Shown: positions 2,062-58,866 of the stretch, one piece after another
Layout of the letters: each line of letters opens with the position of its first letter
Position numbering within the stretch: the stretch's first letter is position 1
Source of the DNA: Candidatus Avispirillum faecium
Lineage (GTDB): Bacteria; Bacillota; Clostridia; Oscillospirales; CAG-272
Assembly: GCA_904396155.1 (NCBI GenBank)
Contig: CAJFOI010000034.1
Span: forward strand, 16,959-80,958
Reading direction: 5' to 3'
DNA length: 64,000 bases
Position numbers and translations under genes: made by a program
Notes under the pieces: model-generated
Told to the model about the DNA's origin: nothing
Database searches by the model: none
Seen by the model: the letters and a program-made list of their open reading frames with translations, nothing else

Positions 2062-3846
2062 ATGAAAATCATACCCACACCAGTAAGTATTGAAGAAAAG
2101 CAGGGGACGCTGACGTTGTCCTCTCTGCGGGATTTGCGGATCGCAGACGGAAGTGACCGGCGAATCACAAAAATTGCGAATACCCTGAAAGGCGAGATCG
2201 AGGAGCTCACCGGCACCCATATCAGAATGAAGATCAGCAGCTGTGGCTGCACCGACGGCGGCATTTATATTTCTCATGGAGAGAGTGGGGAAGGATACAC
2301 TCTGTCTGTGATGAAAAACGGCATCGAAATCCAGGGGCAGGGCGCGCAGGGTGCCTATTACGGCGTGCAGACGCTGCGGCAGATCATTCACGAATACGGG
2401 GACACGATCCCCTGCTGCACCATTGAGGACGCTCCTGACTTTCCGGAGCGCGGCCTGTATCACGATGTAACCCGGGGCCGTGTACCCACACTGAAGCAGC
2501 TTTGCCATATTGCGGATATGCTGGCGTATTATAAGATCAATCACCTCCAGCTGTATGTGGAAGATGCCTACGAATTTGTGGAATACGACGGGATCATGTC
2601 TGCAAAGGACGTGCTGACAGCGGAGGAGATTCTTGCCCTGGACGACTACTGCTATGACAATTTTATCGAATTGGTACCGTCTCTGGCCACTTTTGGACAT
2701 CTGTACAACCTTCTGCAGAGTGAAAAATATCGCCATCTGTGCGAACTTCCGGATTACAAGCCCACCCAGGTATATTGGATCGAGAAAATGGCCCATCACA
2801 CCATTGACGTTTCCAATCCGGAAAGCATTGAGCTGATCAAAAGTATGATTGATCAGTTTATTCCCTTGTGCCGGTCCAATCGGTTCAATATCTGCTGCGA
2901 TGAAACCATGGATTTGTGCCGCGGACGCAATGCCGGCAAGGACCCTGGGGAAGAGTATTTTAAGTTTTTGTCCAAGATTATCGCCCATGTAAAGTCCAGA
3001 GGCAAGACGGTAATGATGTGGGGCGACATCGCTCTGGAGCATTCAGATAAGCTCAGCCAGATTCCCGCAGATACCATCATGCTCAACTGGACCTATGAAA
3101 AAGACCCTGATGAGGGAAAGGTGAAGGCCTTTGCCGATGCAAATCTCAAGCAGATCGTGTGCCCCGGTACTTCCAGCTGGAACCGCTTTGTCGAGGAGAT
3201 CGACCGTTCTGAGGGAAATATCACAAAGCTTGTAGAGTACGGTGCAAAGTACGGTGCTCTGGGCGTTTTGAATACCAACTGGGGAGACTTTGGAAATATC
3301 TGTTCCTTCAACTGTTCTCTATACGGTATTGTGATCGGCGCAGAGAAGGGATGGAACGCAGACGGCAAGCTGACACCTGCCTTTGAGGAGGCGGCCAGTT
3401 CGCTCTTGTACGATTCCGATGAAGTCAATATGATCGAGATCATCCGCACCATGGGCCGGTGTGAGCGTACCTGCGACTGGATGGAATTTATGTACTGGTA
3501 CAGTGCGAACACCGTGGAGGGCAGAAAGACGGAGTTTTCCCTGGATGTGGAAAAGGCCATTGCAAACATTAAGACGCTGGACGGAGTGATGGACACCATT
3601 CGCTCCGTATCCGAGACAGACGAGCGGTTTGTAGATTTGCTGCTGGCCTGCCGGGCGATTCAGCTGATGAATCAGGTGTGCCTGCGGATCAACAAGGTAG
3701 AGGGATACCTGGACGGAGAAAAGCTTCGGGAACAGTTTGAACAGTGGCTTGTGGGATACCGAGCCGCATGGCTCCGGGACAACAAGGAGTCTCAGCTGGA
3801 GCTGATTGCGGACTTTGTGCGGGAGATCTCCTGCATGGAGGTTTGA
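2062..3846 (+). CDS. glycoside hydrolase family 20-like beta-N-acetylhexosaminidase, cytoplasmic (no signal peptide)
   Basis: N-terminus MKIIPTPVSIEEKQG, EDAPDFPERGLYHDVTRG, INHLQLYVED and the CCDET acid pair are typical of GH20 enzymes. The ATG at 2062 is preferred over the TTG at 2053 because of the AGAAAGG ribosome-binding site about 10 nt upstream. Confidence 0.8.
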   Translation: MKIIPTPVSIEEKQGTLTLSSLRDLRIADGSDRRITKIANTLKGEIEELTGTHIRMKISSCGCTDGGIYISHGESGEGYTLSVMKNGIEIQGQGAQGAYYGVQTLRQIIHEYGDTIPCCTIEDAPDFPERGLYHDVTRGRVPTLKQLCHIADMLAYYKINHLQLYVEDAYEFVEYDGIMSAKDVLTAEEILALDDYCYDNFIELVPSLATFGHLYNLLQSEKYRHLCELPDYKPTQVYWIEKMAHHTIDVSNPESIELIKSMIDQFIPLCRSNRFNICCDETMDLCRGRNAGKDPGEEYFKFLSKIIAHVKSRGKTVMMWGDIALEHSDKLSQIPADTIMLNWTYEKDPDEGKVKAFADANLKQIVCPGTSSWNRFVEEIDRSEGNITKLVEYGAKYGALGVLNTNWGDFGNICSFNCSLYGIVIGAEKGWNADGKLTPAFEEAASSLLYDSDEVNMIEIIRTMGRCERTCDWMEFMYWYSANTVEGRKTEFSLDVEKAIANIKTLDGVMDTIRSVSETDERFVDLLLACRAIQLMNQVCLRINKVEGYLDGEKLREQFEQWLVGYRAAWLRDNKESQLELIADFVREISCMEV

Positions 3847-3854
3847 CTTGGAAA

Positions 3855-3885
3855 AAGAGGAGGGATTTTCCCTCCTCTTTTGTTT
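3855..3885. terminator. bidirectional intrinsic terminator (GH20 gene on +, V-ATPase operon on -)
   Basis: AGAGGAGGGA-TTTT-CCCTCCTCT stem with an A-run on the 5' side and a T-run on the 3' side. Confidence 0.75.
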
Positions 3886-3944
3886 CATATTCCCAGTAAT
3901 AAGGTGCCGTAATGTAAGATATCCCCTTTGGAGTTTTTTCGTAC

Positions 3945-4141
3945 AAACTTAAGCTGCCTTCCCTCCGTCTTCACATATGCGAAGACATGCCCCCGGAGAT
4001 GCTGCGCATCTCCCCTCAAAGGAGCCTGCACTTATTAAGCTTTCCCTGGGAAGGGGGAGGTATCAGCGTAGCTGACGGAGGGGTTGTTCAGAGGACAATC
4101 CCTCACCCGCTTCGCGGGAGCTCCCTTTACACAAGGGAGCC
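3945..4141 (-). repeat. mosaic hairpin-module repeat cluster A (same family as clusters at 24490 and 30120, here in minus orientation)
   Basis: Contains the reverse complement of modules found at 24720-24810. These include GGCTCCCTTGTGTAAAGGGAG, the 24-mer CCCGCGAAGCGGGTGAGGGATTGT (4095-4118), ACAACCCCTCCGTCAGCTACGCTGA (4053-4087) and the GGAGATGC-GCA-GCATCTCC hairpin (3995-4013). Confidence 0.85.
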
Positions 4142-4813
4142 TTTGTCCTCTTCCGTTACGGCGCGCCTTGCTTCTATTTGTGCCCGGATCATCATATCCT
4201 TCACTTTCATAAGTCTGGTCTGCGCACCCCGCTCATTTTCGTCCAGCTTCATGGAAATCGTCCTGACTCCCGCTTCATACTGGGGGATCATGATGTGTTC
4301 CAGTGCATTGACTCTGCGGCGTGTTTTCTCTATTTCATCGCACAGCAATGTGGCGGTTTTTTCCAGCTGCGCCAGACGGATGAGCTGCGGGGATGTCTGA
4401 CAGATTTGTTTTACGGCATCGTCCAGTGCCGCAGAGGTGAAGGCGTATCCGTAACCCGCACCGCCGGCATCCGAAGCTTGTATTGCTTCGTATTGAAATA
4501 CCGGCACATTCACGCTCATGATGTTTTTCTGTTTTACCGTCAGTTTTCCCTGTATTCCCGGCAGCATCAGTGCCTCTGTCATCATTCGCGGCTCCATCTG
4601 GGCGGCTGCTGTGGAAAAACTGGAGTATACACCGCCCAACTGTATACTGAGCGTCTCCCGCAGGGCTTTTGCCTGGCGCACGGTGTCCAAAAACTGCCGC
4701 ATCAGCTCATCGCGTTTGTCTTTTAGAAGCTTGTGCCCCCGCCGTGCCGTGATCAGGCGGCTTTTCAACTTTTTCAGTTCCATTCTGGTGGGGTTGACTT
4801 TGATCTCGGCCAT
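4127..4813 (-). CDS. ntpD: V-type ATP synthase subunit D
   Basis: MAEIKVNPTRMELKKLKSRLITARRGHKLLKDKRDEL is a canonical V/A-ATPase D N-terminus. Last gene of the operon. The final codons and the TAA stop lie inside repeat cluster A. Confidence 0.95.
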   Translation of the reverse strand: MAEIKVNPTRMELKKLKSRLITARRGHKLLKDKRDELMRQFLDTVRQAKALRETLSIQLGGVYSSFSTAAAQMEPRMMTEALMLPGIQGKLTVKQKNIMSVNVPVFQYEAIQASDAGGAGYGYAFTSAALDDAVKQICQTSPQLIRLAQLEKTATLLCDEIEKTRRRVNALEHIMIPQYEAGVRTISMKLDENERGAQTRLMKVKDMMIRAQIEARRAVTEEDKGSLV

Positions 4814-24188: not shown

Positions 24189-24462
24189 TAATTGGAAAAT
24201 GAAAAGGCTGTGAAGAGACGAGTAGCCGGAGTTTGAAGACAAAGCGAGCCGCGGATGGTGAGAGCGCGGTGCGGATGCTGCGGTGAAGAACAGCTTGGAG
24301 CCTCTGTCTGAAAGCGTAAGCAAGTAGGTGCAGACGCGGGCGGCGCGTTACAGCCGCAGGATATACAAGTATCTTTGAGAGGATTTTTTGAATCTATATG
24401 GGTGGCACCGCGGAGGATTTTGCCCTTCGTCCCTGTTTTGCAGGGGCGAAGGGCTTTTTTGT
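24189..24462 (+). promoter_or_regulatory. T-box riboswitch leader with terminator; probable specifier AAC (Asn) at 24289-24291
   Basis: Stem I elements are present: GA/K-turn (TGAAGAGACGAGTA), AG bulge (AGCGAG) and distal loop (GGTGAGAG). The specifier loop reads GAAG-AAC-A-GCTTGGA. The T-box sequence TGGGTGGCACCGCGG lies at 24399-24413. The terminator is GCCCTTCGTCCCTG-TTTT-CAGGGGCGAAGGGC followed by TTTTTT (24422-24461). Confidence 0.85.
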
Positions 24463-24489: not shown

Positions 24490-24975
24490 TGTATAAAGGG
24501 TGAACAACCCCTCCGCCGCAGTACAACTGCGGCACCTCCCCTTACACAGGGGAGGCTCGAGTTAGATAGGCCCTCCTCTTGCGGGAGGTTGCGTAGCAGA
24601 CCCATGTTTTAAGCTCTCCTTGTGTAAAGGAGGGTGTCGACGCAGTCGACGGGAGGATTGCCTGTTACAACAACCCCTCCGTCAGCTACGCTGCCCCCTC
24701 CCAGGGGAGGTCCGAATTAGGCTCCCTTGTGTAAAGGGAGCTCCCGCGAAGCGGGTGAGGGATTGTCCTCTGCACAACCTCTCCATCAGTTACGCTGACA
24801 CCCCCTCCCAGGGGAGGATAGAAAAAAGTCCCCCTTACGCAGGCCCCCATGTGGGCGTCTCTTGCAGAGCCGCTAAGGGGGCTGTCAGCGTGAGCTGACT
24901 GGGGGATTGTTTAAGCTCACTACCCCTCTGTCGCAACTCAGTTGTACTGTCTTCCTTTGGGAAAGCTTAGAAATC
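24490..24975 (+). repeat. mosaic hairpin-module repeat cluster B (between the T-box terminator and the aspS start)
   Basis: Three ACAACC..TCC-hairpin-CCYCCC modules start at 24504, 24670 and 24774. Also contains GGCTCCCTTGTGTAAAGGGAG (24720), the 24-mer CCCGCGAAGCGGGTGAGGGATTGT (24743-24766) and the terminal module AAGGGGGCTGTCAGCGTGAGCTGACTGGGGGATTGTTT (24875-24912). Confidence 0.9.
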
Positions 24976-25107
24976 CTTGCAGATGGTATTTGTTAAAAAA
25001 ATTGTATTTTTTCCACCATACAGCAAATTCTATTCGATAAAGTACGGGCTGTTTTTTCATACAATTGCAAGTCAAAGAACAACAGGAAAGAAGGACAAAA
25101 TCAAAAA

Positions 25108-27192
25108 ATGAAAAGAACGATCTATTGCGGGCTGGTGCGGGAAGCGCAGATGGGAACGCGGCAGACCTGCTGCGGATGGGTCCAGACAAAGCGGGACATG
25201 GGCGGCGTCGTTTTTGTGGACCTGAAGGACAGAGAAGGAATTTTGCAGGTTGTGTTTGACGCGTCCAATTTGCCGGCGGACGCTTTCAAGGAGGCGGACG
25301 GACTGCGCAGCCAGTCCGTCATCGCAGTGTCCGGTGTGATCCGCCGACGCAGTGAGGATACCTACAACCCCCGTTTGGAGACCGGGACAGTGGAGCTGTA
25401 CGCAGATTCCCTGGAACTGCTTTCTCAGGCGCAGCAGCTGCCCTTTTCCATGGATGACAATATCAGCGTGCGGGAGGATCTGCGCCTGCGGTATCGGTAC
25501 TTGGATCTGCGCAGTCCCACCATGCTGAGAAATCTGCGGGCACGTCACCTGGTACAAAAGGCCAGCCAGGATTATCTGGACAGTCAGGGGTTTATATGCG
25601 TGGAGACCCCCATGCTGTGCAAGTCTACGCCGGAGGGGGCAAGGGATTATTTGGTTCCCAGCCGGGTCCATCAGGGGTGTTTTTACGCATTGCCCCAGTC
25701 TCCCCAGATTTACAAGCAGTTGCTCATGGTAGGGGGGATTGACAAATATTATCAGGTGGCCCGATGCTTTCGCGACGAGGATTTGCGTGCGGACCGCCAG
25801 CCGGAGTTTACGCAGGTGGATATGGAGATGTCTTTTGTGGATCAGGAAGACATCCTTATCCATCTGGAAAAAATGTTCCGGCATATTTTCCATACGTTTA
25901 CCGGCCAGGAGATCGAAGGAGCTTTCCCCCGACTTACCTGGCAGGAGGCCATGGACCGGTACGGCAGCGACAAACCGGATCTGCGGTTCGACCTTCCCAT
26001 CGTAGATGTCACAGATCTTGCTGCCGGCTGTTCTTTCAGCGTATTTCGTTCTGTTTGCGACAAAGGCGGCGTTGTGCGGGCCATTAACGCCAAGGGGTGT
26101 GCTGACTTCACCAGAACCCAAATTGAAATGCTCACAGAAAACGCGCTTTCCTATGGCGCAAAAGGGATGGCTTGGATTGCTGTTCGCCCCGACGGGGAAA
26201 TCTACTCGATTTTGACAAAGTACTTCACCGAAGCGGAGATGCGTGCGCTTCTGGACCGCATGGGGGCTGTTCCCGGGGACTTTGTATTGTTTTCTGCGGA
26301 TACACTCTCTACCGTGCGCCGTGTTTTGGGCAGCCTGCGCCTGGATGTAGCGGAAATTTTGGGACTGCGGGACAAGAAAAAGTTTTCCTTTTTGTTTGTC
26401 ACGGATTTTCCCCAGTTTGAATATTCCGAAGAAGAAAAACGGTACGTTTCTACCCATCACCCTTTCACCATGCCTTATCCGGAGGATTTGCAGTATCTCT
26501 TTACCGATCCGGCAAAGGTGCGTGCACAGGCATATGACGTAGTGCTCAATGGGATTGAGCTGGGCAGCGGGTCTATCCGTATCCACCGGCAGGATATTCA
26601 GGAAAAAATGTTTGAGGCATTGGGCTTCGACAAGGAGCAGATCGAAAAGCGGTTTGGCTTTATGGTAAATGCATTCCGGTACGGTACGCCGCCCCACGGA
26701 GGCTTTGCCTTTGGGTTGGACCGGTTGGTCATGCTTCTGCTGGGCGCCGATTCCCTTCGGGATGTGATCGCGTTTCCCAAAATCAAAGATGCTTCCTGTC
26801 CGATGACGGACGCGCCTACGCCTGTAGATCCGGAGCAGCTTGCCGTACTGGGCTTGGATAAGCTTTGGGAAGCCGGTACAGACGGTACAGGGGAGAAAAA
26901 AGAAAAGGTGCCGCAGATCGATGTGGCTGCGGTAGCGGGGCTTGCACGTCTGTCTTTTTCGGCAGAGGAGATGCAGAGCCTGCAGGCCGATATGAAAAAC
27001 ATCATCGCCTTTGCAAATCAGCTGTCGCAGGCGGATACCACCGGTGCGGCCGCGGCAGAGCACATCGTTCCCATGGAAAATGTATTCCGGCCGGATGAGG
27101 CAGAGCATCTCTTTGACAGAGAAGAACTGCTGGCAGCTGCAAAAACCAAGGAAGACGGATATATCACCGTTCCCCGTGTTGTGGAAGGATAG
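25108..27192 (+). CDS. aspS: aspartate--tRNA ligase fused to a C-terminal GatC domain (probably a non-discriminating AspRS)
   Basis: 694-aa uninterrupted ORF. Residues 1 to about 590 are a complete bacterial AspRS (MKRTIYCG...QSPQIYKQLLM...FRDEDLRADRQPEFTQVDMEMSF...GLDRLVMLL...AFPK). This is followed by a linker and a GatC-like sequence. Confidence 0.9.
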   Translation: MKRTIYCGLVREAQMGTRQTCCGWVQTKRDMGGVVFVDLKDREGILQVVFDASNLPADAFKEADGLRSQSVIAVSGVIRRRSEDTYNPRLETGTVELYADSLELLSQAQQLPFSMDDNISVREDLRLRYRYLDLRSPTMLRNLRARHLVQKASQDYLDSQGFICVETPMLCKSTPEGARDYLVPSRVHQGCFYALPQSPQIYKQLLMVGGIDKYYQVARCFRDEDLRADRQPEFTQVDMEMSFVDQEDILIHLEKMFRHIFHTFTGQEIEGAFPRLTWQEAMDRYGSDKPDLRFDLPIVDVTDLAAGCSFSVFRSVCDKGGVVRAINAKGCADFTRTQIEMLTENALSYGAKGMAWIAVRPDGEIYSILTKYFTEAEMRALLDRMGAVPGDFVLFSADTLSTVRRVLGSLRLDVAEILGLRDKKKFSFLFVTDFPQFEYSEEEKRYVSTHHPFTMPYPEDLQYLFTDPAKVRAQAYDVVLNGIELGSGSIRIHRQDIQEKMFEALGFDKEQIEKRFGFMVNAFRYGTPPHGGFAFGLDRLVMLLLGADSLRDVIAFPKIKDASCPMTDAPTPVDPEQLAVLGLDKLWEAGTDGTGEKKEKVPQIDVAAVAGLARLSFSAEEMQSLQADMKNIIAFANQLSQADTTGAAAAEHIVPMENVFRPDEAEHLFDREELLAAAKTKEDGYITVPRVVEG
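26908..27189 (+). other. gatC: GatC-like domain encoded in frame at the 3' end of the aspS ORF
   Basis: VPQIDVAAVAGLARLSFSAEEMQSLQADMKNIIAFANQLSQADT...HIVPMENVFRPDEAE...KEDGYITVPRVVEG aligns by eye along the full length of Bacillus GatC (ISIEEVKHVAHLARLAI...FAEELNEVDT...MREDEA...KDGYIRVPSILD). Confidence 0.8.
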
Positions 27193-27197
27193 AGCAT

Positions 27198-28640
27198 ATG
27201 AAGGAACTTACAAGCAGAAGCGTGTACGAACATGCAAGGGCACTAAAGAAAAAAGAATACTCTGCTGTGGAGCTGACCCAGGCATATCTGGAGGAGATCT
27301 CCCGGCGGGAAGCGGAGATCCATGCCTATATTTCTACAAATGCAGAATATGCGCTGGAGCAGGCAAAGGCGGCAGACAAACGAATCGCAGCCGGTGAGGG
27401 AACGGCACTTACCGGGATCCCAGCCGGCATCAAGGACAACATGTGTACCAAAGGGATTGCCACTACCTGCGCATCCAAGATGCTGGCAGATTATGTGCCC
27501 CCTTATGACGCCCATGTGATCCAGCGGCTGCAGGAGGCGGGATATGTACTGCTGGGCAAGCTGAACATGGATGAATTTGCCATGGGTTCCACCACGGAAA
27601 ATTCGGCGATGGGGGTCACGAGAAATCCTCGGGATCCTTCCCGGGTGCCGGGGGGATCCTCGGGTGGCTCTGCTGCGGCAGTGGCTGCCGGAGAGGCTGC
27701 GTATACCCTGGGCAGTGACACGGGAGGATCCATCCGCCAGCCCGCCGCGTTCTGCGGCGTGGTGGGCATGAAGCCGACATACGGCCGTGTTTCCCGGTAT
27801 GGGTTGGTCGCCTTTGCTTCTTCTTTGGATCAAATCGGCCCCCTCACCCGGGATGTGCGGGACAATGCGCTGGTACTTTCTGCAATTGCAGGTCACGACC
27901 GGCGGGATGCGACTTGTGTGGACCGACCCGCGGAGGATTACCTTGCCAGTCTGGATGGCGGTGTTGCCGGTATGCGCATTGGGCTGCCGGAGGAATTTTT
28001 CGGGGACGGAATTTCTGCAGATGTCAAAGAAGCGGTACTGGCCGCCGCAGATACCCTGGCTGGCATGGGCGCCCAGTTGGTGCAGGTGAAAATGCCGTCG
28101 CTGGATTATGCGCTGTCTGCCTATTATGTGATTTCTTCCGCAGAAGCATCTTCCAACCTGGCGCGGTTTGACGGGGTGCGGTACGGATACCGTGCGGCAG
28201 ATTTTGCCGACATGGAACAGTTGTATCAGAAGAGCCGCAGCGAGGGCTTCGGCGCAGAAGTCAAGCGGCGGATCATGCTGGGGACCTTTGCGCTTTCTTC
28301 CGGATACTACGATGCCTATTATAAAAAGGCGCTCCAGGTGCGCAGCCTGGTGCGGGCAGACTTTGACAGCGCCTTTGCGAAGTGCGACTGCATTCTTTCC
28401 CCTGTGGCGCCTACGGTGGCATACAAAATTGGGGAAAAAACCAGCGACCCGTTGGAGATGTATTTGGGAGACGCCTACAGCGTCCCGGTGAATATTGCCG
28501 GTGTGCCGGCACTGTCCATGCCTTGCGGAAGCGGGGAGGGCGGTATGCCGGTGGGTATGCAGCTCATCGGACCTGCATTTTCCGAGGCGATGCTGTACCG
28601 TGCAGGATATGCGTTTGAAATGGAAAGAAAGGGGGAATGA
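27198..28640 (+). CDS. gatA: Asp-tRNA(Asn)/Glu-tRNA(Gln) amidotransferase subunit A
   Basis: 480 aa with the amidase signature GGSSGGSAAAVAAG. Starts 5 nt after the aspS-gatC stop. Confidence 0.96.
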   Translation: MKELTSRSVYEHARALKKKEYSAVELTQAYLEEISRREAEIHAYISTNAEYALEQAKAADKRIAAGEGTALTGIPAGIKDNMCTKGIATTCASKMLADYVPPYDAHVIQRLQEAGYVLLGKLNMDEFAMGSTTENSAMGVTRNPRDPSRVPGGSSGGSAAAVAAGEAAYTLGSDTGGSIRQPAAFCGVVGMKPTYGRVSRYGLVAFASSLDQIGPLTRDVRDNALVLSAIAGHDRRDATCVDRPAEDYLASLDGGVAGMRIGLPEEFFGDGISADVKEAVLAAADTLAGMGAQLVQVKMPSLDYALSAYYVISSAEASSNLARFDGVRYGYRAADFADMEQLYQKSRSEGFGAEVKRRIMLGTFALSSGYYDAYYKKALQVRSLVRADFDSAFAKCDCILSPVAPTVAYKIGEKTSDPLEMYLGDAYSVPVNIAGVPALSMPCGSGEGGMPVGMQLIGPAFSEAMLYRAGYAFEMERKGE

Positions 28641-28643
28641 GAT

Positions 28644-30074
28644 ATGCAGATGCTCAAGGACTATGAAATGGTGATCGGGCTGGAGGTCCATGTGGAACTG
28701 AAAACCAGGACAAAGATCTTTTGCTCCTGCCCCACAGATTTTGGCGCGCCGCCCAATACCCAGGTCTGTCCGGTTTGTCTGGGGCTGCCGGGGACGCTAC
28801 CGGTACTCAACGGCAAGGTGGTGGAGTATGCGGTGAAGGCGGGTCTTGCCACCAACTGCACCATTGCCCGCTTTTCCAAGCAGGACCGGAAAAACTATTT
28901 CTATCCGGACCTGCCCAAAGCATATCAGATTTCCCAGTATGATCTGCCTTTGTGCGAGCACGGCTGGCTGGATATTGAAACGGCAGATGGGACAAAGCGC
29001 ATCGGGATCACCCGGATTCACATCGAGGAAGACGCCGGAAAGCTGATGCATGACGATGAAAAGGGGACAATGATCGACTGCAACCGCTGCGGTGTTCCTC
29101 TGATCGAGATCGTCAGCGAGCCGGATATCCGCAGCGCCGAGGAGGCAAAGGCATACTTGCAGAAGCTGCGGGCCATTATCTTGTACACAGGTGTGTCGGA
29201 TTGCAAGATGAACGAGGGATCTCTGCGGTGCGATGTCAATCTGTCGGTGCGAAAAAAGGGCACGGAGACGTTCGGCACCCGCACGGAAATGAAAAATCTG
29301 AATTCTTTTCAGTTTATTGTGAAAGCGATCGAATATGAATACAAGCGGCAGGTGGAGGCCATAGAGGCTGGAGAAAAGATCGTTCAGGAGACCCGGCGGT
29401 TCGATGCGAATACAGGGAAAACCTATTCCATGCGCACCAAGGAAAATGCCAACGACTACCGGTATTTTCCCGATCCGGATCTGCCGCCCATCAAATTGAC
29501 GGAAGAAAAGATTGCCTCCCTCCAGGCTGAGATTCCTCGGCTGCCGGATGCTCGCAAGCAGGAGTATATGGAAAGATATGGCCTGTCTGCCTATGACGGA
29601 GAAGTGCTGACCACCAATATGGCGATGGCGGATTATTTTGAGGCGGCTGCGGCGCAGACCCGGTATCCCAAGCTGGTGGCCAATATGCTCTTGTCCGAGG
29701 TGATGCGCCTTGCAGGCGGCGAGGAGGATGTCTGCAGAATTCAACCCTCCCGCATGGCTGCGCTTGCGGATTTGTCCGGGGACGGGATCATCAATTCCGC
29801 CACCGTGAAGAAGCTGATCAAGGAGCTGTGGGAGACGGACTTTGACGTGGCCGATAAGGTAGAGCGGGAAGGGCTTGCCCAGGTGAGCGATGAGATGATC
29901 CTCCTGGAGTGGGTGCAGGAAGCCATCCGGCAAAATCCAAAATCTGTTGCAGATTATAAGAAGGGAAAAAAGGCCGCCGCGAAGGCGATCGTGGGCAAAG
30001 TGATGGCAGTGTCTGGCGGACGGGCCAATCCTACCGTAGTGGATCGCTTGGTGGAACTGGAGCTGAATCAGTGA
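28644..30074 (+). CDS. gatB: Asp-tRNA(Asn)/Glu-tRNA(Gln) amidotransferase subunit B
   Basis: 476 aa with VIGLEVHVELKT, CPVCLGLPGTLPVLN and a C-terminal YqeY-like tail. Confidence 0.96.
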   Translation: MQMLKDYEMVIGLEVHVELKTRTKIFCSCPTDFGAPPNTQVCPVCLGLPGTLPVLNGKVVEYAVKAGLATNCTIARFSKQDRKNYFYPDLPKAYQISQYDLPLCEHGWLDIETADGTKRIGITRIHIEEDAGKLMHDDEKGTMIDCNRCGVPLIEIVSEPDIRSAEEAKAYLQKLRAIILYTGVSDCKMNEGSLRCDVNLSVRKKGTETFGTRTEMKNLNSFQFIVKAIEYEYKRQVEAIEAGEKIVQETRRFDANTGKTYSMRTKENANDYRYFPDPDLPPIKLTEEKIASLQAEIPRLPDARKQEYMERYGLSAYDGEVLTTNMAMADYFEAAAAQTRYPKLVANMLLSEVMRLAGGEEDVCRIQPSRMAALADLSGDGIINSATVKKLIKELWETDFDVADKVEREGLAQVSDEMILLEWVQEAIRQNPKSVADYKKGKKAAAKAIVGKVMAVSGGRANPTVVDRLVELELNQ

Positions 30075-30119: not shown

Positions 30120-30628
30120 ATGTGTAAGTGGATATGTTGTTTACAACCCCTCCGCCGCAACTATGTTGCGGCACCTCCCCTTGCACAGGGGAGGCTCGAA
30201 TTAGAAGGCTCCCTTGTGGGGAGGTGCGCAGCACCTCCGGGGGCATCCCGCGAAGCGGGTGAGGGATTGTCTTCTGTACAACCCTTCCATCACGGCTGCG
30301 CCGTGCCACCTCCCCAGCAACTCCTGTGGAGCTGCGACACAGGGGAGGCTCGAATTAGAAGGCTCCCTTGTGGGGAGATGCGCAGCACCTCCAGGGGCAT
30401 CCCGCGAAGCGGGTGAGGGATTGTTCTCTGTACAACCCTTCCGTCACGGCTGCGCCGTGCCACCTCCCCAGCAACTCCTGTGGAGCTGCGACACAGGGGA
30501 GGCTCGAATTAAATAGGTCCCTTGTGGGGAATTGTAAAGCAACTCTCGCACAAGGGAGACTAGAAAAAAGAAGGCCCCCTTGTGTAAAGGGGGCTGTCAG
30601 CGTGAGCTGACTGGGGGATTGTTTTTTC
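30120..30628 (+). repeat. mosaic hairpin-module repeat cluster C
   Basis: Begins with the same module as cluster B (30143 ACAACCCCTCCGCCGCA...CACAGGGGAGGCTCGAATTAGAA). Ends with the identical 38-mer AAGGGGGCTGTCAGCGTGAGCTGACTGGGGGATTGTTT (30587-30624). The 24-mer CCCGCGAAGCGGGTGAGGGATTGT occurs at 30247 and 30401. Confidence 0.9.
30207..30514 (+). repeat. two tandem 154-bp units inside cluster C
   Basis: Units 30207-30360 and 30361-30514 align base for base with about 7 differences. Confidence 0.9.
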
Positions 30629-30681
30629 ATTGGAACAAACTACATACCGTGAAAGGAAGAATTTGAAAAAAACATCCGGTG

Positions 30682-30710
30682 TTGACATGGACATTTCATT
30701 GATATATAAT
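30682..30710 (+). promoter_or_regulatory. consensus sigma-70-type promoter
   Basis: TTGACA (30682-30687), 17-nt spacer, TATAAT (30705-30710). Confidence 0.75.
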
Positions 30711-30714
30711 ATTC

Positions 30715-30880
30715 TTGCCACGCAAGTGAATATGCTACACGGTATACGTATGCCTTTTGCCTTTGGTAAAAACGCATGCTCTCTTTTCGCATACCTATAC
30801 CGTATGTAGAAAAACTTGTGTGGCAGCAACGGAGCTGTGCGTTTTTCGGTGCGCGGCTTCGGCTGCGCACTTTTTTATTT
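30715..30880 (+). ncRNA. candidate structured leader RNA / small RNA ending in an intrinsic terminator (unknown class)
   Basis: Starts at the predicted transcription start. A 12-bp closing helix pairs TTGCCACGCAAG (30715-30726) with CTTGTGTGGCAG (30825-30836). It encloses an imperfect hairpin of about 18 bp (30735-30753 with 30789-30809). This is followed by the terminator GTGCGCGGC-TTCG-GCTGCGCAC plus TTTTTT (30849-30876). Confidence 0.4.
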
Positions 30881-30948
30881 ATTGGGAGGAGTGAGAGGGC
30901 AGCTGAGAACATAGACCCCGGCGGGATTTACAGAAAGGAGGAGAAAAC

Positions 30949-31296
30949 ATGGTGGAAGGCAAACTCAAACATAAGAAAAACAAATTTGGGAATCTTGGAA
31001 AAACAGTTCAAAAGTTTGCACACGTTGCATTTATAGTTGCCGTGGCTTTTATCATCATCTGGATGATAATTTCTGTTTATCTGGTTGTGATTGCGCAGCA
31101 GTGGTTTAGCATTCCTTTCATTCTTGGGATCGGACTTTTATCGATTTGTGCAATCTGGCTGGCATGGGCGCTGATTTCCTGTTTTGCAGAGATTTCCATA
31201 CAGCTGACCAGAATCGCCGATCGAGGACAAGCCGGGTGGAAGGTGCAGTTGGAGGGGGACAGAAAGGGGGAAGAAGAGAAAAAGAAGGAGAGGTAA
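30949..31296 (+). CDS. small membrane protein (115 aa, 2-3 TM helices, Lys/Glu-rich tail), hypothetical
   Basis: Ribosome-binding site AAAGGAGGAG 7 nt upstream. Hydrophobic helices VAFIVAVAFIIIWMIISVYLVVI and FILGIGLLSICAIWLAWALISCF. The TAA stop is followed by 27 further in-frame sense codons. Confidence 0.65.
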   Translation: MVEGKLKHKKNKFGNLGKTVQKFAHVAFIVAVAFIIIWMIISVYLVVIAQQWFSIPFILGIGLLSICAIWLAWALISCFAEISIQLTRIADRGQAGWKVQLEGDRKGEEEKKKER

Positions 31297-57057: not shown

Positions 57058-58866
57058 ATGGAACTTTTTGAAAAAAACGACAAACGCACCCATTACTGCG
57101 GTACACTTTCCGCCGCGGACACAGGGAAACGCGTGTGTGTACTGGGTTGGTGTCAGCGGCAGCGGGACCTTGGAGGGTTGATCTTCATTGATTTGCGGGA
57201 TCGCACCGGGATTGTGCAGCTTGCTTTTGACGAGAATACGGAAAAATCTGTTTTTGAAAAAGCGTTTGCAGTGCGCGCAGAATTTGTGCTGTGTGCAAAG
57301 GGGACAGTCCGTCCCCGGGGGGATGGCGCGGTAAATGATCAGCTTGCCACCGGCGAGATTGAGGTCGCTGTGGACGAACTGAAGATATTGTCTCAGGCTC
57401 AGACCCCGCCGTTTCCCATTGTAGAAAACAGCACGACCAACAGCGAGACCCGTATGCTTTACCGATTCTTGGATCTGCGCCGGCCGGATATGCAGAGGAA
57501 TTTGATGGCACGCAGCAAGATCAGCGGAATCGCGCGGCAATATTTTGCGGAAAACGGGTTTATAGATATTGAAACGCCCACGCTAATCAAGCCCACGCCG
57601 GAAGGAGCCAGAGACTATTTGGTGCCCTCCAGGGTACATCCCGGGTGCTTTTACGCACTGCCTCAGTCTCCCCAGCTGTATAAGCAGATGCTGATGTATG
57701 CGGGCTTTGACCGGTATTTTCAGATCGCCCGCTGTTATCGGGACGAGGATCTGCGTGCGGACCGGCAGCCGGAATTTACCCAGATCGATTTGGAGATGTC
57801 CTTTGGAGATGAAGAGGACATGATCCGTATCAACGAAGGCTTTTTGGAGCGGGTGTTTCGGGACTTTCTGCATCTTCCTCTGAAAACGCCTTTTCCCCGG
57901 ATCACCTATGCCGAGGCGATGCGCCGCTTCGGCAGCGACAAGCCGGATACCCGGTTTGGAATGGAACTTTGCGATCTCTCTTCTGTAGTGAAGGAATGTG
58001 GGTTTTCCGTATTTGCCCGCTGTGTTGCGGACGGCGGCAGCGTGCGGGGTATCCTCGTGCCGGGGGGGGCTTCCATGTCCAGAAAGGAAATCGATTCCCT
58101 GGGGGATTTCGTGAAAACCTATGGAGCGGGAGGGCTTGCCTGGTATAAAAATACGCAGACGCCGTCCTCTTCCTTTGCAAAATTTCTCAGCGGGGGGGAG
58201 ATGCAGGCGATCCTCGATGCCGTTGGCGCTGCACAGGGAGATCTTGTGTTGATTGTGGCCGCCAAGGATAAGGTGGTGTTCGATTCCTTGGGCGCGCTTC
58301 GATGCGAGGTGGCCAAGCGGCTGGAAATGATCGAGGCGGGTCGGTTTGACTTTCTCTGGGTGACGGAATTCCCGCTTCTGGAGTACGATGAGGAAGACGG
58401 AAGATATTATGCAAAACATCATCCTTTTACCATGCCCATGGAGGAGGATATGGGAAAACTTTCCTCTGATCCGGGTTCCGTTCGCTCTCGAGCGTACGAC
58501 ATTGTGCTCAACGGTACGGAGATCGGCGGCGGTTCGGTCCGCGTCCATACGGTGGAACGTCAGAAGCAGATGTTCGCAGCACTGGGCATTTCCGAAGAAG
58601 AGGCGGAGAAAAAGTTTGGTTTTTTGCTCCGCGCTCTGCACTACGGCGTCCCGCCCCATCTGGGTCTGGCGTATGGGTTGGATCGCCTGGTGGCGCTTCT
58701 CCTGGGAACGGAGGATATCCGCGACGTGATCGCTTTTCCCAAGGTGCAGAATGCTTCGGAGCCCATGTCCGGCTGCCCCTGTTTCCCAGATGATGCAGCA
58801 TTGCAGGAACTGCATCTCGCTGTGTGCCGGAATGCGGAGACTGCGCAGGGGCAGGCAAACGCATAA
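57058..58866 (+). CDS. aspS: aspartate--tRNA ligase (second, stand-alone copy)
   Basis: 602 aa with the same class II motifs as the 25108 copy (QSPQLYKQMLM, YRDEDLRADRQPEFTQIDLEMSF, GLDRLVALLLG). No T-box fits in the 130-nt upstream region. Confidence 0.95.
   Translation: MELFEKNDKRTHYCGTLSAADTGKRVCVLGWCQRQRDLGGLIFIDLRDRTGIVQLAFDENTEKSVFEKAFAVRAEFVLCAKGTVRPRGDGAVNDQLATGEIEVAVDELKILSQAQTPPFPIVENSTTNSETRMLYRFLDLRRPDMQRNLMARSKISGIARQYFAENGFIDIETPTLIKPTPEGARDYLVPSRVHPGCFYALPQSPQLYKQMLMYAGFDRYFQIARCYRDEDLRADRQPEFTQIDLEMSFGDEEDMIRINEGFLERVFRDFLHLPLKTPFPRITYAEAMRRFGSDKPDTRFGMELCDLSSVVKECGFSVFARCVADGGSVRGILVPGGASMSRKEIDSLGDFVKTYGAGGLAWYKNTQTPSSSFAKFLSGGEMQAILDAVGAAQGDLVLIVAAKDKVVFDSLGALRCEVAKRLEMIEAGRFDFLWVTEFPLLEYDEEDGRYYAKHHPFTMPMEEDMGKLSSDPGSVRSRAYDIVLNGTEIGGGSVRVHTVERQKQMFAALGISEEEAEKKFGFLLRALHYGVPPHLGLAYGLDRLVALLLGTEDIRDVIAFPKVQNASEPMSGCPCFPDDAALQELHLAVCRNAETAQGQANA

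Follow-up and report, generated by a model that had tools for sequence, protein, structure and literature searches.

Alternating copies of a dispersed, REP/BIME-like repeat with a candidate purine-motif triplex fold behind the T-box terminator of the aspS-gatCAB operon in Candidatus Avispirillum faecium

The stretch of 64,000 nt analysed here (the window), from contig CAJFOI010000034.1 of Candidatus Avispirillum faecium, carries three clusters of a short, hairpin-rich repeat, designated A, B and C, of which cluster B lies within the leader of an operon encoding an aspartyl-tRNA synthetase (AspRS) and amidotransferase subunits. This leader starts with a T-box (24201-24437, plus strand), recognised by the Rfam family RF00230 with 90.7 bits (E=3.6e-20), just below the gathering score of 93, while orthologous leaders reach 98.6-102.8 bits with RF00230. 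The terminator hairpin and T-run of the T-box (24422-24461, plus strand) were located by the terminator scan as a 15-bp stem (24422-24454) followed by TTTTTTG. Downstream are an aspS-gatC fusion gene of 694 aa (25108-27192), gatA (27198-28640) and gatB (28644-30074), all on the plus strand and identified by their Pfam families. A preliminary description, made from the sequence alone, had already placed a T-box, a gap of ~645 nt before aspS and a repeat cluster inside this gap, all of which stand. It had also reported no promoter between the terminator and aspS, and none was retrieved from this interval by a sigma-70-like scan, albeit only a simple one. Past the T-box terminator, the terminator scan found no terminator-like site on the plus strand of cluster B.

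The clusters had been described as short modules, shuffled and reiterated. These modules recur as reported: ACAACCYYTCC is present seven times against 0.11 expected (at 24504, 24670, 24774, 30143, 30278 and 30432 on the plus strand and at 4077-4087 on the minus strand), the 24-mer CCCGCGAAGCGGGTGAGGGATTGT is present four times against 0 expected, and the two hairpins quoted as examples, GCCGCAGT-ACA-ACTGCGGC at 24514 and GCCGCAAC-TAT-GTTGCGGC at 30153, are both there. The family is indeed a mosaic one, but its modules are not freely shuffled, as the line-up of scan matches revealed that one unit of 47-57 nt, existing in two subtypes, underlies all three clusters. Read on its G-rich strand, this unit runs from a pyrimidine arm (SCYCCCYT) through a GTGYA loop to a purine arm (ARGGGRGS), followed by a T, a hypervariable, GC-rich mini-hairpin closed in most cases by a GNA triloop, and a purine-rich tail, (K)GRGGGRT-TGT. 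The head hairpin can be written as G[GC]C[TC]CCC[TC]T-GTGYA-A[AG]GGG[AG]G[CG]; after it come T, a copy-specific hairpin of 5-11 bp, T or G, and the tail G[AG]GGG[AG]TTGT. The Y subtype has the head GGCTCCCTT...AAGGGAGC and the tail GAGGGATTGT, and the Z subtype has the head GCCTCCCCT...AGGGGAGG and the tail GAGGGGTTGT. The ACAACC... motif is the Z tail in reverse complement, and the 24-mer corresponds to the variable hairpin plus the tail of a Y unit. One consensus fits 116 junction matches, and 140 distinct units could be aligned without ambiguity.

A covariance model (R1) built from these 140 distinct units, all from other genomes, and run unfiltered on the whole window retrieved 14 units at E<1e-3, all of them within clusters A, B and C and in strictly alternating orientation (- + - in cluster A, - + - + - + in clusters B and C). 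All are intergenic, except for a 15-nt overlap with the 3' end of one gene. As nhmmer was about half as sensitive as the covariance model, the position statistics that are based on nhmmer undercount the units.

Cluster B contains six units. The first, B1 (24504-24556, minus strand; R1 73.1 bits), belongs to the Z subtype and reads GCCTCCCCT-GTGTA-AGGGGAGG-T-[GCCGCAGT-TGT-ACTGCGGC]-G-GAGGGGTTGT; its predicted DNA fold comprises two hairpins and a free tail (z = -6.3), and 8/8 of the triplets introduced below are concordant. B2 (24613-24661, plus strand; 42.4 bits), recognised by the model, by its fold and by direct reading of the sequence, is divergent. The head reads CTCTCCTT/AAGGAGGG; the tail has changed along with it, to GGGAGGATT, and all eight positions match, pairs 4-20 and 5-19 being answered by G and A in the tail. 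B3 (24670-24711, minus strand; 32.2 bits, E=2.7e-8) has a shortened head of the CCTCCC-AGG-GGAGG type. B4 (24720-24766, plus strand; 62.1 bits, fold z = -5.8) is a canonical Y unit that contains the 24-mer, with the sequence GGCTCCCTT-GTGTA-AAGGGAGC-T-[CCCGC-GAA-GCGGG]-T-GAGGGATTGT. The head of B5 (24774-24818, minus strand; 19.7 bits, E=3e-4) is shortened or degenerate. Finally, B6 (24842-24910, plus strand; 40.6 bits, and fold) represents a Y' subtype (GGCCCCC/GGGGGC, tail GGGGGATTGT), the head loop of which carries an extra inserted hairpin; a 38-mer of B6 recurs with 100% identity where cluster C ends.

The comparison with relatives is informative on how this array came to lie in the leader. 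Three related species (L107, L108-111 and L234-236 among the fetched loci), whose AspRS is 90-91% identical to that of the window (with ~80% nucleotide identity for L234), display the same synteny and have 0 units in the 8-14 kb covered. The T-box terminator is kept in L107 and L108, where ~78 nt separate the end of the T-box model from the start codon, as against 670 nt in the window; cluster B starts at a distance of 42 nt from the terminator. The flanks just 3' of the terminator and just 5' of the ATG align across species, leaving a block from ~24504 to 25075. Its last part is an AT-rich, unique remainder (24911-25075) that is not in the L107 and L108 leaders; these ~165 nt show no similarity among any of the fetched loci and hold at most one very degenerate unit (24919-24966; covariance model E=0.9). 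Judged from these alignments, cluster B together with the ~165 nt of unique DNA is a lineage-specific insertion of ~570 nt into the T-box leader. The same array is present in two further samples of the window's species, L237 (99.84% identical) and L238 (99.77%). Three independent short-read contigs break within clusters B or C (at the start of L001, the end of L237 and the start of L238), which is what a multi-copy repeat would lead one to expect.

The most economical reading would be that an element favouring terminator-proximal DNA mistook the T-box terminator for the terminator at the end of a gene. As the scan detected no second terminator-like site in cluster B, transcripts that read through the T-box should in principle be able to reach aspS. 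Cluster B would be a tolerated passenger in the leader, possibly damping read-through, rather than an evolved regulator of aspS. Control of aspS-gatCAB by the T-box would now act across an insertion of ~570 nt of structured DNA, which makes the locus a natural test of the tolerance of riboswitch leaders.

Two features of the operon itself may be added. In the T-box specifier region (24285-24300), GAA-GAAC-A follows the S-turn GAA, and on a provisional reading of the register the specifier codon could be AAC (Asn), possibly overlapping GAA (Glu); the region thereby resembles the Asn/Glu T-box of the Clostridium acetobutylicum transamidation operon. A second, unfused aspS paralogue of 602 aa (57058-58866) is located 32 kb downstream of the operon (25108-30074) and has segments of 72-77% DNA identity. 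The two aspS genes suggest a non-discriminating AspRS/amidotransferase route alongside a second AspRS.

Both hairpins of the unit are maintained by compensatory changes, as had been proposed from two copies. In the 140-unit alignment, 94.1% of the cells are paired against 69.9% in shuffles, double-sided changes number 560 against 185+-12, and the covariation score is 0.531 against 0.136, with slid controls at or below 0.14. Wobble pairs are rare (~2% of cells). The variable region has 156 distinct sequences in 241 units, and 98.7% of them fold more stably than their own shuffles, with loops that are mainly G..A triloops or tetraloops (GAA 37, GTA 13, AAA 11, GCA 10). Cluster B as a whole folds with z = -7.4 on one strand and -6.5 on the other. 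The view that these sequences are non-coding is also borne out: for the open reading frames (ORFs) across the clusters, Pfam gave nothing up to E<=1, and 1 similar database protein is known. In contrast, the suggestion that their translations are recurrent spurious proteins found no backing, as a database search with the PLRGSSLYTREP ORF gave that 1 match.

The most distinctive property of the unit is that its tail mirrors the purine (3') arm of the head hairpin and changes together with the head pair. We tabulated this relationship in 291 distinct units, retrieved with a search pattern that imposes no link between head and tail. At pair 8-16 and tail position 6, 157 units are T-A/A and 133 are C-G/G, with 1 discordant or other. 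Pair 2-22 and the base preceding the tail are concordant as C-G/G in 149 units and as G-C/T in 125, leaving 16 discordant or other. The remaining two sites are less balanced: pair 4-20 and tail position 2 give T-A/A 237 times and C-G/G 32 times (22 discordant or other, including 10 C-G/A), and pair 5-19 and tail position 3 give C-G/G 259 times and T-A/A 8 times (24 discordant or other, including 18 C-G/A). Pairs 2-22 and 8-16 commonly occur in each of the four possible combinations, above all among phage copies, and the tail tracks both sites. Recombination between the subtypes would need four crossovers to generate such hybrid haplotypes, so that selection must be what keeps head and tail concordant. 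The tail thus covaries at three to four independently varying sites, and it does so in two separate data sets. When the triple rule is scored over 8 positions as complementarity of the tail with the 5' arm in parallel register, with 500 shuffles, the genome set (A1) is 94.5% concordant against 75.2+-1.2 in shuffles (score 0.55 against 0.23) and the independent viral set (A2) 99.3% against 80.9 (score 0.53 against 0.22). In both sets, 0/500 shuffles reach the observed values and slid controls remain at or below 0.20.

The rule that emerges pairs A with T-A, G with C-G, an invariant T with T-A, and T with the inverted pair G-C. In predicted DNA folds the two hairpins are formed and the tail is unpaired. 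An antiparallel Watson-Crick helix between the tail and the 5' arm was considered and rejected: it would require tail position 6 to match position 4 and tail position 2 to match position 8, which is contradicted by 86 units of the T4/C8 haplotype (Z units). The preliminary description had seen in the pairing of GGAGG with CCTCC a resemblance to Shine-Dalgarno (SD) and anti-SD sequences. The pairing is real, as it is the stem of the pyrimidine/purine hairpin, the purine arm of which is mirrored by the tail so that the three strands covary, but it need not be an SD/anti-SD device.

A structure with this pattern is known. In the class II purine motif (Y-R-RH), a pyrimidine domain, a purine domain and a mirror-image purine domain follow one another on one strand, an order known as the class II intrastrand triplex of Hoyne/Maher and Holder et al. 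(2015; PMC4666352). The domain order of this class and its mirror tail, for which a stem of at least 6-8 is expected, are found here at 8 positions. The loops, in contrast, are not all short, since loop 1 has 5 nt and loop 2 consists of T, a hairpin of 5-11 bp and T or G, amounting to 15-27 nt. We propose that, when the G-rich strand is present as single-stranded DNA, its two arms would pair into the head hairpin and the tail would fold back, with the mini-hairpin as a compact linker, to lie as a third strand antiparallel to the purine arm. The triplets G.G-C, A.A-T, T.A-T and T.C-G would build a class II purine-motif intrastrand triplex of 7-8 triplets, and we infer that the three-way rule reflects a real DNA triplex of this type. 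Considering the locus as a whole, cluster B probably consists of six alternating copies of a dispersed DNA repeat of REP/BIME-like organisation (repetitive extragenic palindromic sequences and bacterial interspersed mosaic elements) that folds as a purine-motif triplex and was inserted close to a terminator.

Related structures have been described in the BoxC/PIT/TM-ECO repeats, intrastrand triplex repeats of Escherichia coli and other Proteobacteria (Holder et al., 2015, PMC4666352; Hoyne et al., 2000, as cited there), which occur in intergenic positions as inverted pairs of type A and type B (PMC4666352). The family described here shares with them the class II order on one G/C-rich strand with 8-9 triplets, the intergenic position, the high copy number, the patchy presence among close relatives with rearranging loci, and the inverted pairs of two subtypes (Y and Z instead of A and B). 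The sequences are unrelated, as the TM-ECO consensus CCCTCNCCC-N3-6-GGGNGAGGG-N3-GGGNGAGGG has 0 matches in the window. Moreover, where TM-ECO has a second loop of 3 nt, the units have a hypervariable mini-hairpin flanked by T (15-27 nt), and searches of the ITxF type, with loops of 1-6 nt, would therefore miss the family. Further differences are a conserved TTGT 3' of the third strand, long alternating arrays, a host in the Bacillota (Oscillospiraceae) and an abundance in phage contigs with strong strand bias, whereas TM-ECO is reported to be unassociated with phages or plasmids. Finally, the triplets are backed here by covariation besides conservation.

Among the other modular repeats, BOX, Correia and further MITE-like families (miniature inverted-repeat transposable elements) of Firmicutes and Neisseria are likewise hairpin-rich, intergenic, variable in module number and found within transcription units. 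They differ from the present family in that no sequence similarity exists and no target duplication was found here, and we know of no three-way covariation in families of that type. No Rfam family besides the T-box matched, in either the gathering or the E-value mode, and literature searches on the sequences and on REP or MITE elements in Oscillospiraceae or Clostridia retrieved no description of this repeat family. The preliminary description, too, was aware of none for this family; elements of its kind, however, have been described, namely BoxC/PIT/TM-ECO (PMC4666352) and REP/BIME. The REP/BIME organisation and the BoxC/PIT fold are known, and what is new is this family, with a three-way covariation that supports a DNA triplex.

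That the family is dispersed well beyond this locus, as the preliminary description expected of a BIME-like element, was confirmed by two scans. The junction GAGGGATTGT-N5-9-ACAACCYYTCC, searched in one genome per species, gave at least 105 stretches, and a scan of IMG/VR viral contigs for the head gave at least 120; the junction pattern favours tail-to-tail Y+Z pairs. Among the matches listed, nearly all are metagenome-assembled genomes (MAGs) of Oscillospiraceae, Acutalibacteraceae, Faecousia, Ructibacterium, Eubacteriales or Clostridia. The related MAG JAGZAC01 contains 190 units in 193 kb (30 loci, covariance model), and other taxa contain 176 units in 75 loci, mostly as single tail-to-tail Y+Z pairs. 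In the viral loci, 177 units were found at E<=1e-8, and 23 unannotated faecal 'Bacteriophage sp.' records match the consensus doublet, although cluster B itself has no match in GenBank phages or PLSDB plasmids. The pattern matches in Saprospiraceae (L076) and Chlorobiaceae (L077) were rejected as chance matches, as no unit is present there. A perfect Y+Z doublet (73.6 and 66.7 bits) lies at 1397-1506 of L003, a contig binned as Alloprevotella (Bacteroidota), for which mis-binning or transfer is possible. Uncultured gut Oscillospiraceae and their phages thus carry the family in abundance, and it fragments short-read assemblies; as its units can occupy regulated leaders and phage late operons, masking or annotation in MAG and virome pipelines is warranted.

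The orientation of the units depends on where they reside. Non-random orientation relative to genes had been set as a test of the first reading, and the result is divided, since chromosomal doublets have a Y-Z order that is random relative to the flanking genes and single units in phage contigs are strongly biased. Phage units are mostly single and co-oriented, with all units on one strand in 17/25 of the contigs that have at least three. They are preferentially antisense: 106 have both flanking genes on the opposite strand and 47 lie inside opposite-strand ORF calls, compared with 22 whose flanking genes are both on the same strand. In the antisense orientation, 38/154 phage cases have an SD and a start codon in the next 45 nt downstream, as against 1/154 in the other orientation. 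The L189 contig carries a late phage operon that includes genes for portal, major head, adaptor and tape-measure proteins. Regarding position, convergent contexts prevail over divergent ones (77 against 11), 32% of the clusters have a separate terminator no more than 100 nt away against 14% of control points (p=3e-6), and the three clusters of the window each begin 25-100 nt past a terminator.

From these data a broader claim may be put forward tentatively, and with more doubt than trust: the covariation would be evolutionary evidence of a selected purine-motif DNA triplex in living cells, and the family a distinct class of elements structured as single-stranded DNA (ssDNA; hairpin, mini-hairpin and third strand), exchanged between the chromosomes of Oscillospiraceae and their phages and constrained in orientation inside operons by the harm that the folded G-rich strand would do as non-template or lagging strand. 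If true, this would amount to a triplex selected in cells, which could not be demonstrated for the E. coli TM-ECO. BoxC/TM-ECO, the best-studied case, is too conserved for much covariation, whereas the present family offers hundreds of diverged copies in which the third-strand base tracks the Watson-Crick pair at several independent positions, the kind of evidence that established RNA secondary structures.

Several points weigh against the triplex and against its spread as a mobile element, and the proposal must be interpreted cautiously in their light. Loop 2, with 15-27 nt and a hairpin, exceeds the published definitions of 1-6 nt (ITxF) or 0-10 nt (Hoyne et al.), and ~10% of the units have a mismatched triplet (tail GAAGGG with a C5-G19 pair). 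A pyrimidine-motif triplex (C+.G-C, T.A-T) on the C-rich strand fits 6/8 positions and could form in RNA. The Fisher and shuffle statistics ignore the kinship among copies, and the orientation statistics rest on crude gene calls, their bias being confirmed independently by the SD and start codon counts. The TM-ECO triplex itself was formed in vitro on a single strand and was unseen in duplex DNA or by in vivo dimethyl sulfate (DMS) footprinting (PMC4666352). Filled and empty sites show no consistent target duplication, and no mobilising enzyme (Y1/RAYT, that is, a REP-associated tyrosine transposase, or any other recurrent gene) was found beside the units in the window and the ~1.9 Mb of fetched loci.

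The choice of strand and of nucleic acid can be addressed with the sequences themselves. Non-Watson-Crick cells read on the G-rich strand are G.T rather than A.C, by 47:13 in genomes and 18:5 in phage copies. The G..A loops lie on the G-rich strand too, and d(GCGAAGC)-type GNA triloops are classic stable DNA mini-hairpins. The T.A-T and T.C-G triplet positions fit the purine motif only. Because of the G.T bias, the G..A loops and the purine-only triplets, and because purine-motif triplexes do not form in RNA (PMC4666352), we favour a single-stranded DNA fold of the G-rich strand.

The element could instead act as RNA, through its hairpins or through a pyrimidine-motif triple helix of the C-rich strand (U.A-U, C+.G-C), protecting, processing or insulating mRNA as REP or ENE-like stabilisers do, and in cluster B it would stabilise or modulate the T-box read-through transcript. 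The 6/8 triple positions that fit the pyrimidine motif, which is able to form in RNA (PMC4666352), are consistent with such a role. So are the phage units, which lie co-oriented inside operons with the C-rich strand as mRNA (153 of the antisense type against 22), part of them just upstream of an SD and start codon as counted above, L189 being a genuine late structural operon, as well as the fact that cluster B folds far better than shuffles on either strand. Nevertheless, we regard this explanation as unlikely: in a C-rich mRNA the G.T cells of the G-rich strand become A.C mismatches and the G..A loops become U..C, and the T.A-T and T.C-G positions have no place in the pyrimidine motif. Five or six adjacent C+.G-C triplets would be unfavourable at neutral pH, and the chromosomal doublets, mostly located after terminators, have no orientation preference.

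Standing about as low in our judgement is the idea that these are ordinary REP or REPIN elements (REP doublets forming a long hairpin) moved by a RAYT, a Y1 HUH transposase, with the mirror between head and tail incidental to recognition by the protein. Indeed, much of the organisation agrees with REP/BIME elements: short extragenic palindromic units in high copy number, two subtypes alternating in orientation, characteristic linkers (PMC6006769), and clusters at gene 3' ends and between convergent genes, where assemblies break. At the foot of the variable hairpin, Z units carry GTGG in 44/78 (56%) and GTGN in 67/78 (86%), resembling the GT[AG]G foot of canonical REPs (PMC6006769), whereas Y units have CTG[GT] or CTCC; insertions without clear target duplication are also what HUH enzymes would give. 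However, each unit has two hairpins and a tail, and the second hairpin is not conserved in sequence even within a genome, in contrast to REP stems. Within a doublet, the variable hairpin of one arm is no closer to that of the other (identity 0.55) than in re-paired controls (0.54), with 1/62 at 0.8 or above, so that the arms remain unpaired and no long REPIN hairpin results. We rejected the REPIN hairpin on this ground, the tails pairing only with an A.C mismatch; an attC-like reading was likewise discarded by inspection, as the core sites RYYYAAC/GTTRRRY do not fit ACAAC/GTTGT. Neither a RAYT gene flanked by units (a REPtron) nor a Y1 transposase beside them was found in the window or the ~1.9 Mb of loci, and a protein that reads single strands in a polarity-dependent manner would leave the mirror covariation at four sites unexplained.

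In the search for an enzyme, the window, 105 genome loci and 120 viral loci were compared by tblastn with sequences of IS200 TnpA and an E. coli RAYT. It matched only one ORF in L079 and one IS200-like gene 11 kb from a unit. The ORFs flanked by units, as well as 115 unit-adjacent ORFs annotated with Pfam, turned out to be ordinary housekeeping genes with no enriched family. The L079 ORF (7102-7590, Faecousia sp. MAG) encodes 162 aa with an HLH motif, a weak RAYT match (E=1e-5) and no Pfam match at 1e-5. A different REP of classical appearance, GTAGGGCGGGGTCTTGACCCCGCC, borders the ORF and also breaks it in frame. This sole RAYT-like ORF, at best a putative RAYT, thus has its own REP, which weighs against the RAYT explanation.

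Returning to the repeat family itself, its turnover can be followed at clusters A and C. Cluster C (30143-30622) starts 25 nt past the gatB terminator and comprises six R1 units, at 30143-30195, 30278-30349 and 30432-30503 on the minus strand and at 30207-30270, 30361-30424 and 30573-30622 on the plus strand. It contains a 154-nt tandem duplication (97% identity), and compared with the JAGZAC01 orthologue (L012) the outer boundaries are shared and the internal content is different. Past it, a near-consensus promoter (TTGACA...TATAAT, ~30683-30711) precedes an ORF of 115 aa (30949-31296) without a Pfam match; this segment (30680-31296) includes a promoter region present in JAGZAC01 and is wholly absent from the L108 species. 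Cluster A (3945-4141), between convergent GH20 and V-ATPase D genes, has R1 units at 4039-4087 (plus) and 4095-4141 (minus) and a degenerate one at ~3945-4026 (minus), and the orthologous cluster in L067 is arranged in the same way. The head loop of a unit (GTGTAA, 4127-4141) supplies the last four codons and TAA of the V-type ATPase subunit D gene (4127-4813, minus strand), and the JAGZAC01 orthologue of this gene (L067) likewise ends within a repeat unit. Compared with the window at 3846-4010, L067 has ~1.9 kb of extra JAGZAC01 DNA (396-2303) with minus-strand ORFs abutting the units, a rearrangement at the repeat cluster. Among phage contigs of 93-98% identity, single units are present in some and missing from others. 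Two sites have short direct repeats (6-7 nt), which slippage deletions would explain equally.

The family is thus one that is gained, lost and locally duplicated and that prefers the vicinity of intrinsic terminators and gene 3' ends, which would account for the one array just past the T-box terminator, in this species only. Spread may proceed via single-stranded intermediates and an enzyme acting in trans, or by replication slippage and recombination, as has been proposed for TM-ECO at a polymerase-stalling structure (PMC4666352). Because of the GTGG/GTGN foot of Z units and the insertions without target duplications, a single-copy HUH enzyme elsewhere in the genome is our best guess. The strong orientation bias in phage operons may stem from a selective disadvantage of copies in which the G-rich strand becomes the displaced non-template strand. 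Transcription is blocked by non-template strands rich in purines.

It is quite unlikely that the units are intrinsic terminators, possibly bidirectional or acting as back-ups, that have multiplied at gene ends. In 83% of the units an A directly precedes the head, and at least 5/8 of the preceding bases are A in 29%; read on the other strand, the GC-rich head hairpin is therefore often followed by T's. Where gene ends converge, the doublets point outward, consistent with the prevalence of convergent contexts (77 against 11), and in the MAG SVKI01 the copies sit within hairpins composed of an A-run, stem, stem' and T-run. Nevertheless, a GC-rich hairpin directly followed by a U-run is not what the units present: a T-run follows only 6/122 phage units, which lie within operons and upstream of the next ribosome-binding site, cluster B has no terminator-like site on the plus strand past that of the T-box, each cluster of the window adjoins a separate conventional terminator, and PIT elements are inactive as terminators in E. 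coli (PMC4666352).

An origin as MITEs of a DDE-type insertion sequence (IS), with terminal inverted repeats and target duplication, or as decayed gene fragments is very improbable, since, despite the inverted repeats (heads or tails) that bound the doublets and a 230-bp MITE-like element of SVKI01 that has its own inverted ends and, in at least 10 loci with 88-100% identity, includes a doublet, terminal inverted repeats, target-site duplication and an autonomous IS were not found together, filled and empty sites show no consistent duplication, no transposase ORF with matching ends was found, the unit-adjacent ORFs are housekeeping genes, no related IS, Rfam family or annotated phage or plasmid feature matched, and the cluster ORFs lack Pfam matches and have the single similar database protein mentioned above. 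Decay from a gene or IS had been named in advance as an outcome that would overturn the first description, and nothing of the sort was found in Pfam or among IS elements.

The SVKI01 element deserves a separate mention. In this Oscillospiraceae MAG, the Y+Z doublet lies inside a MITE-like element of ~230 bp with inverted ends TATGCNGAGTGTCTTTAAGGA... and an internal terminator-like hairpin, present at L007 (2027-2256), L019, L039, L042, L048, L051, L058, L072, L085 and L102. Each copy splits an A-run, stem, stem', T-run hairpin and resembles the loop of a bidirectional terminator.

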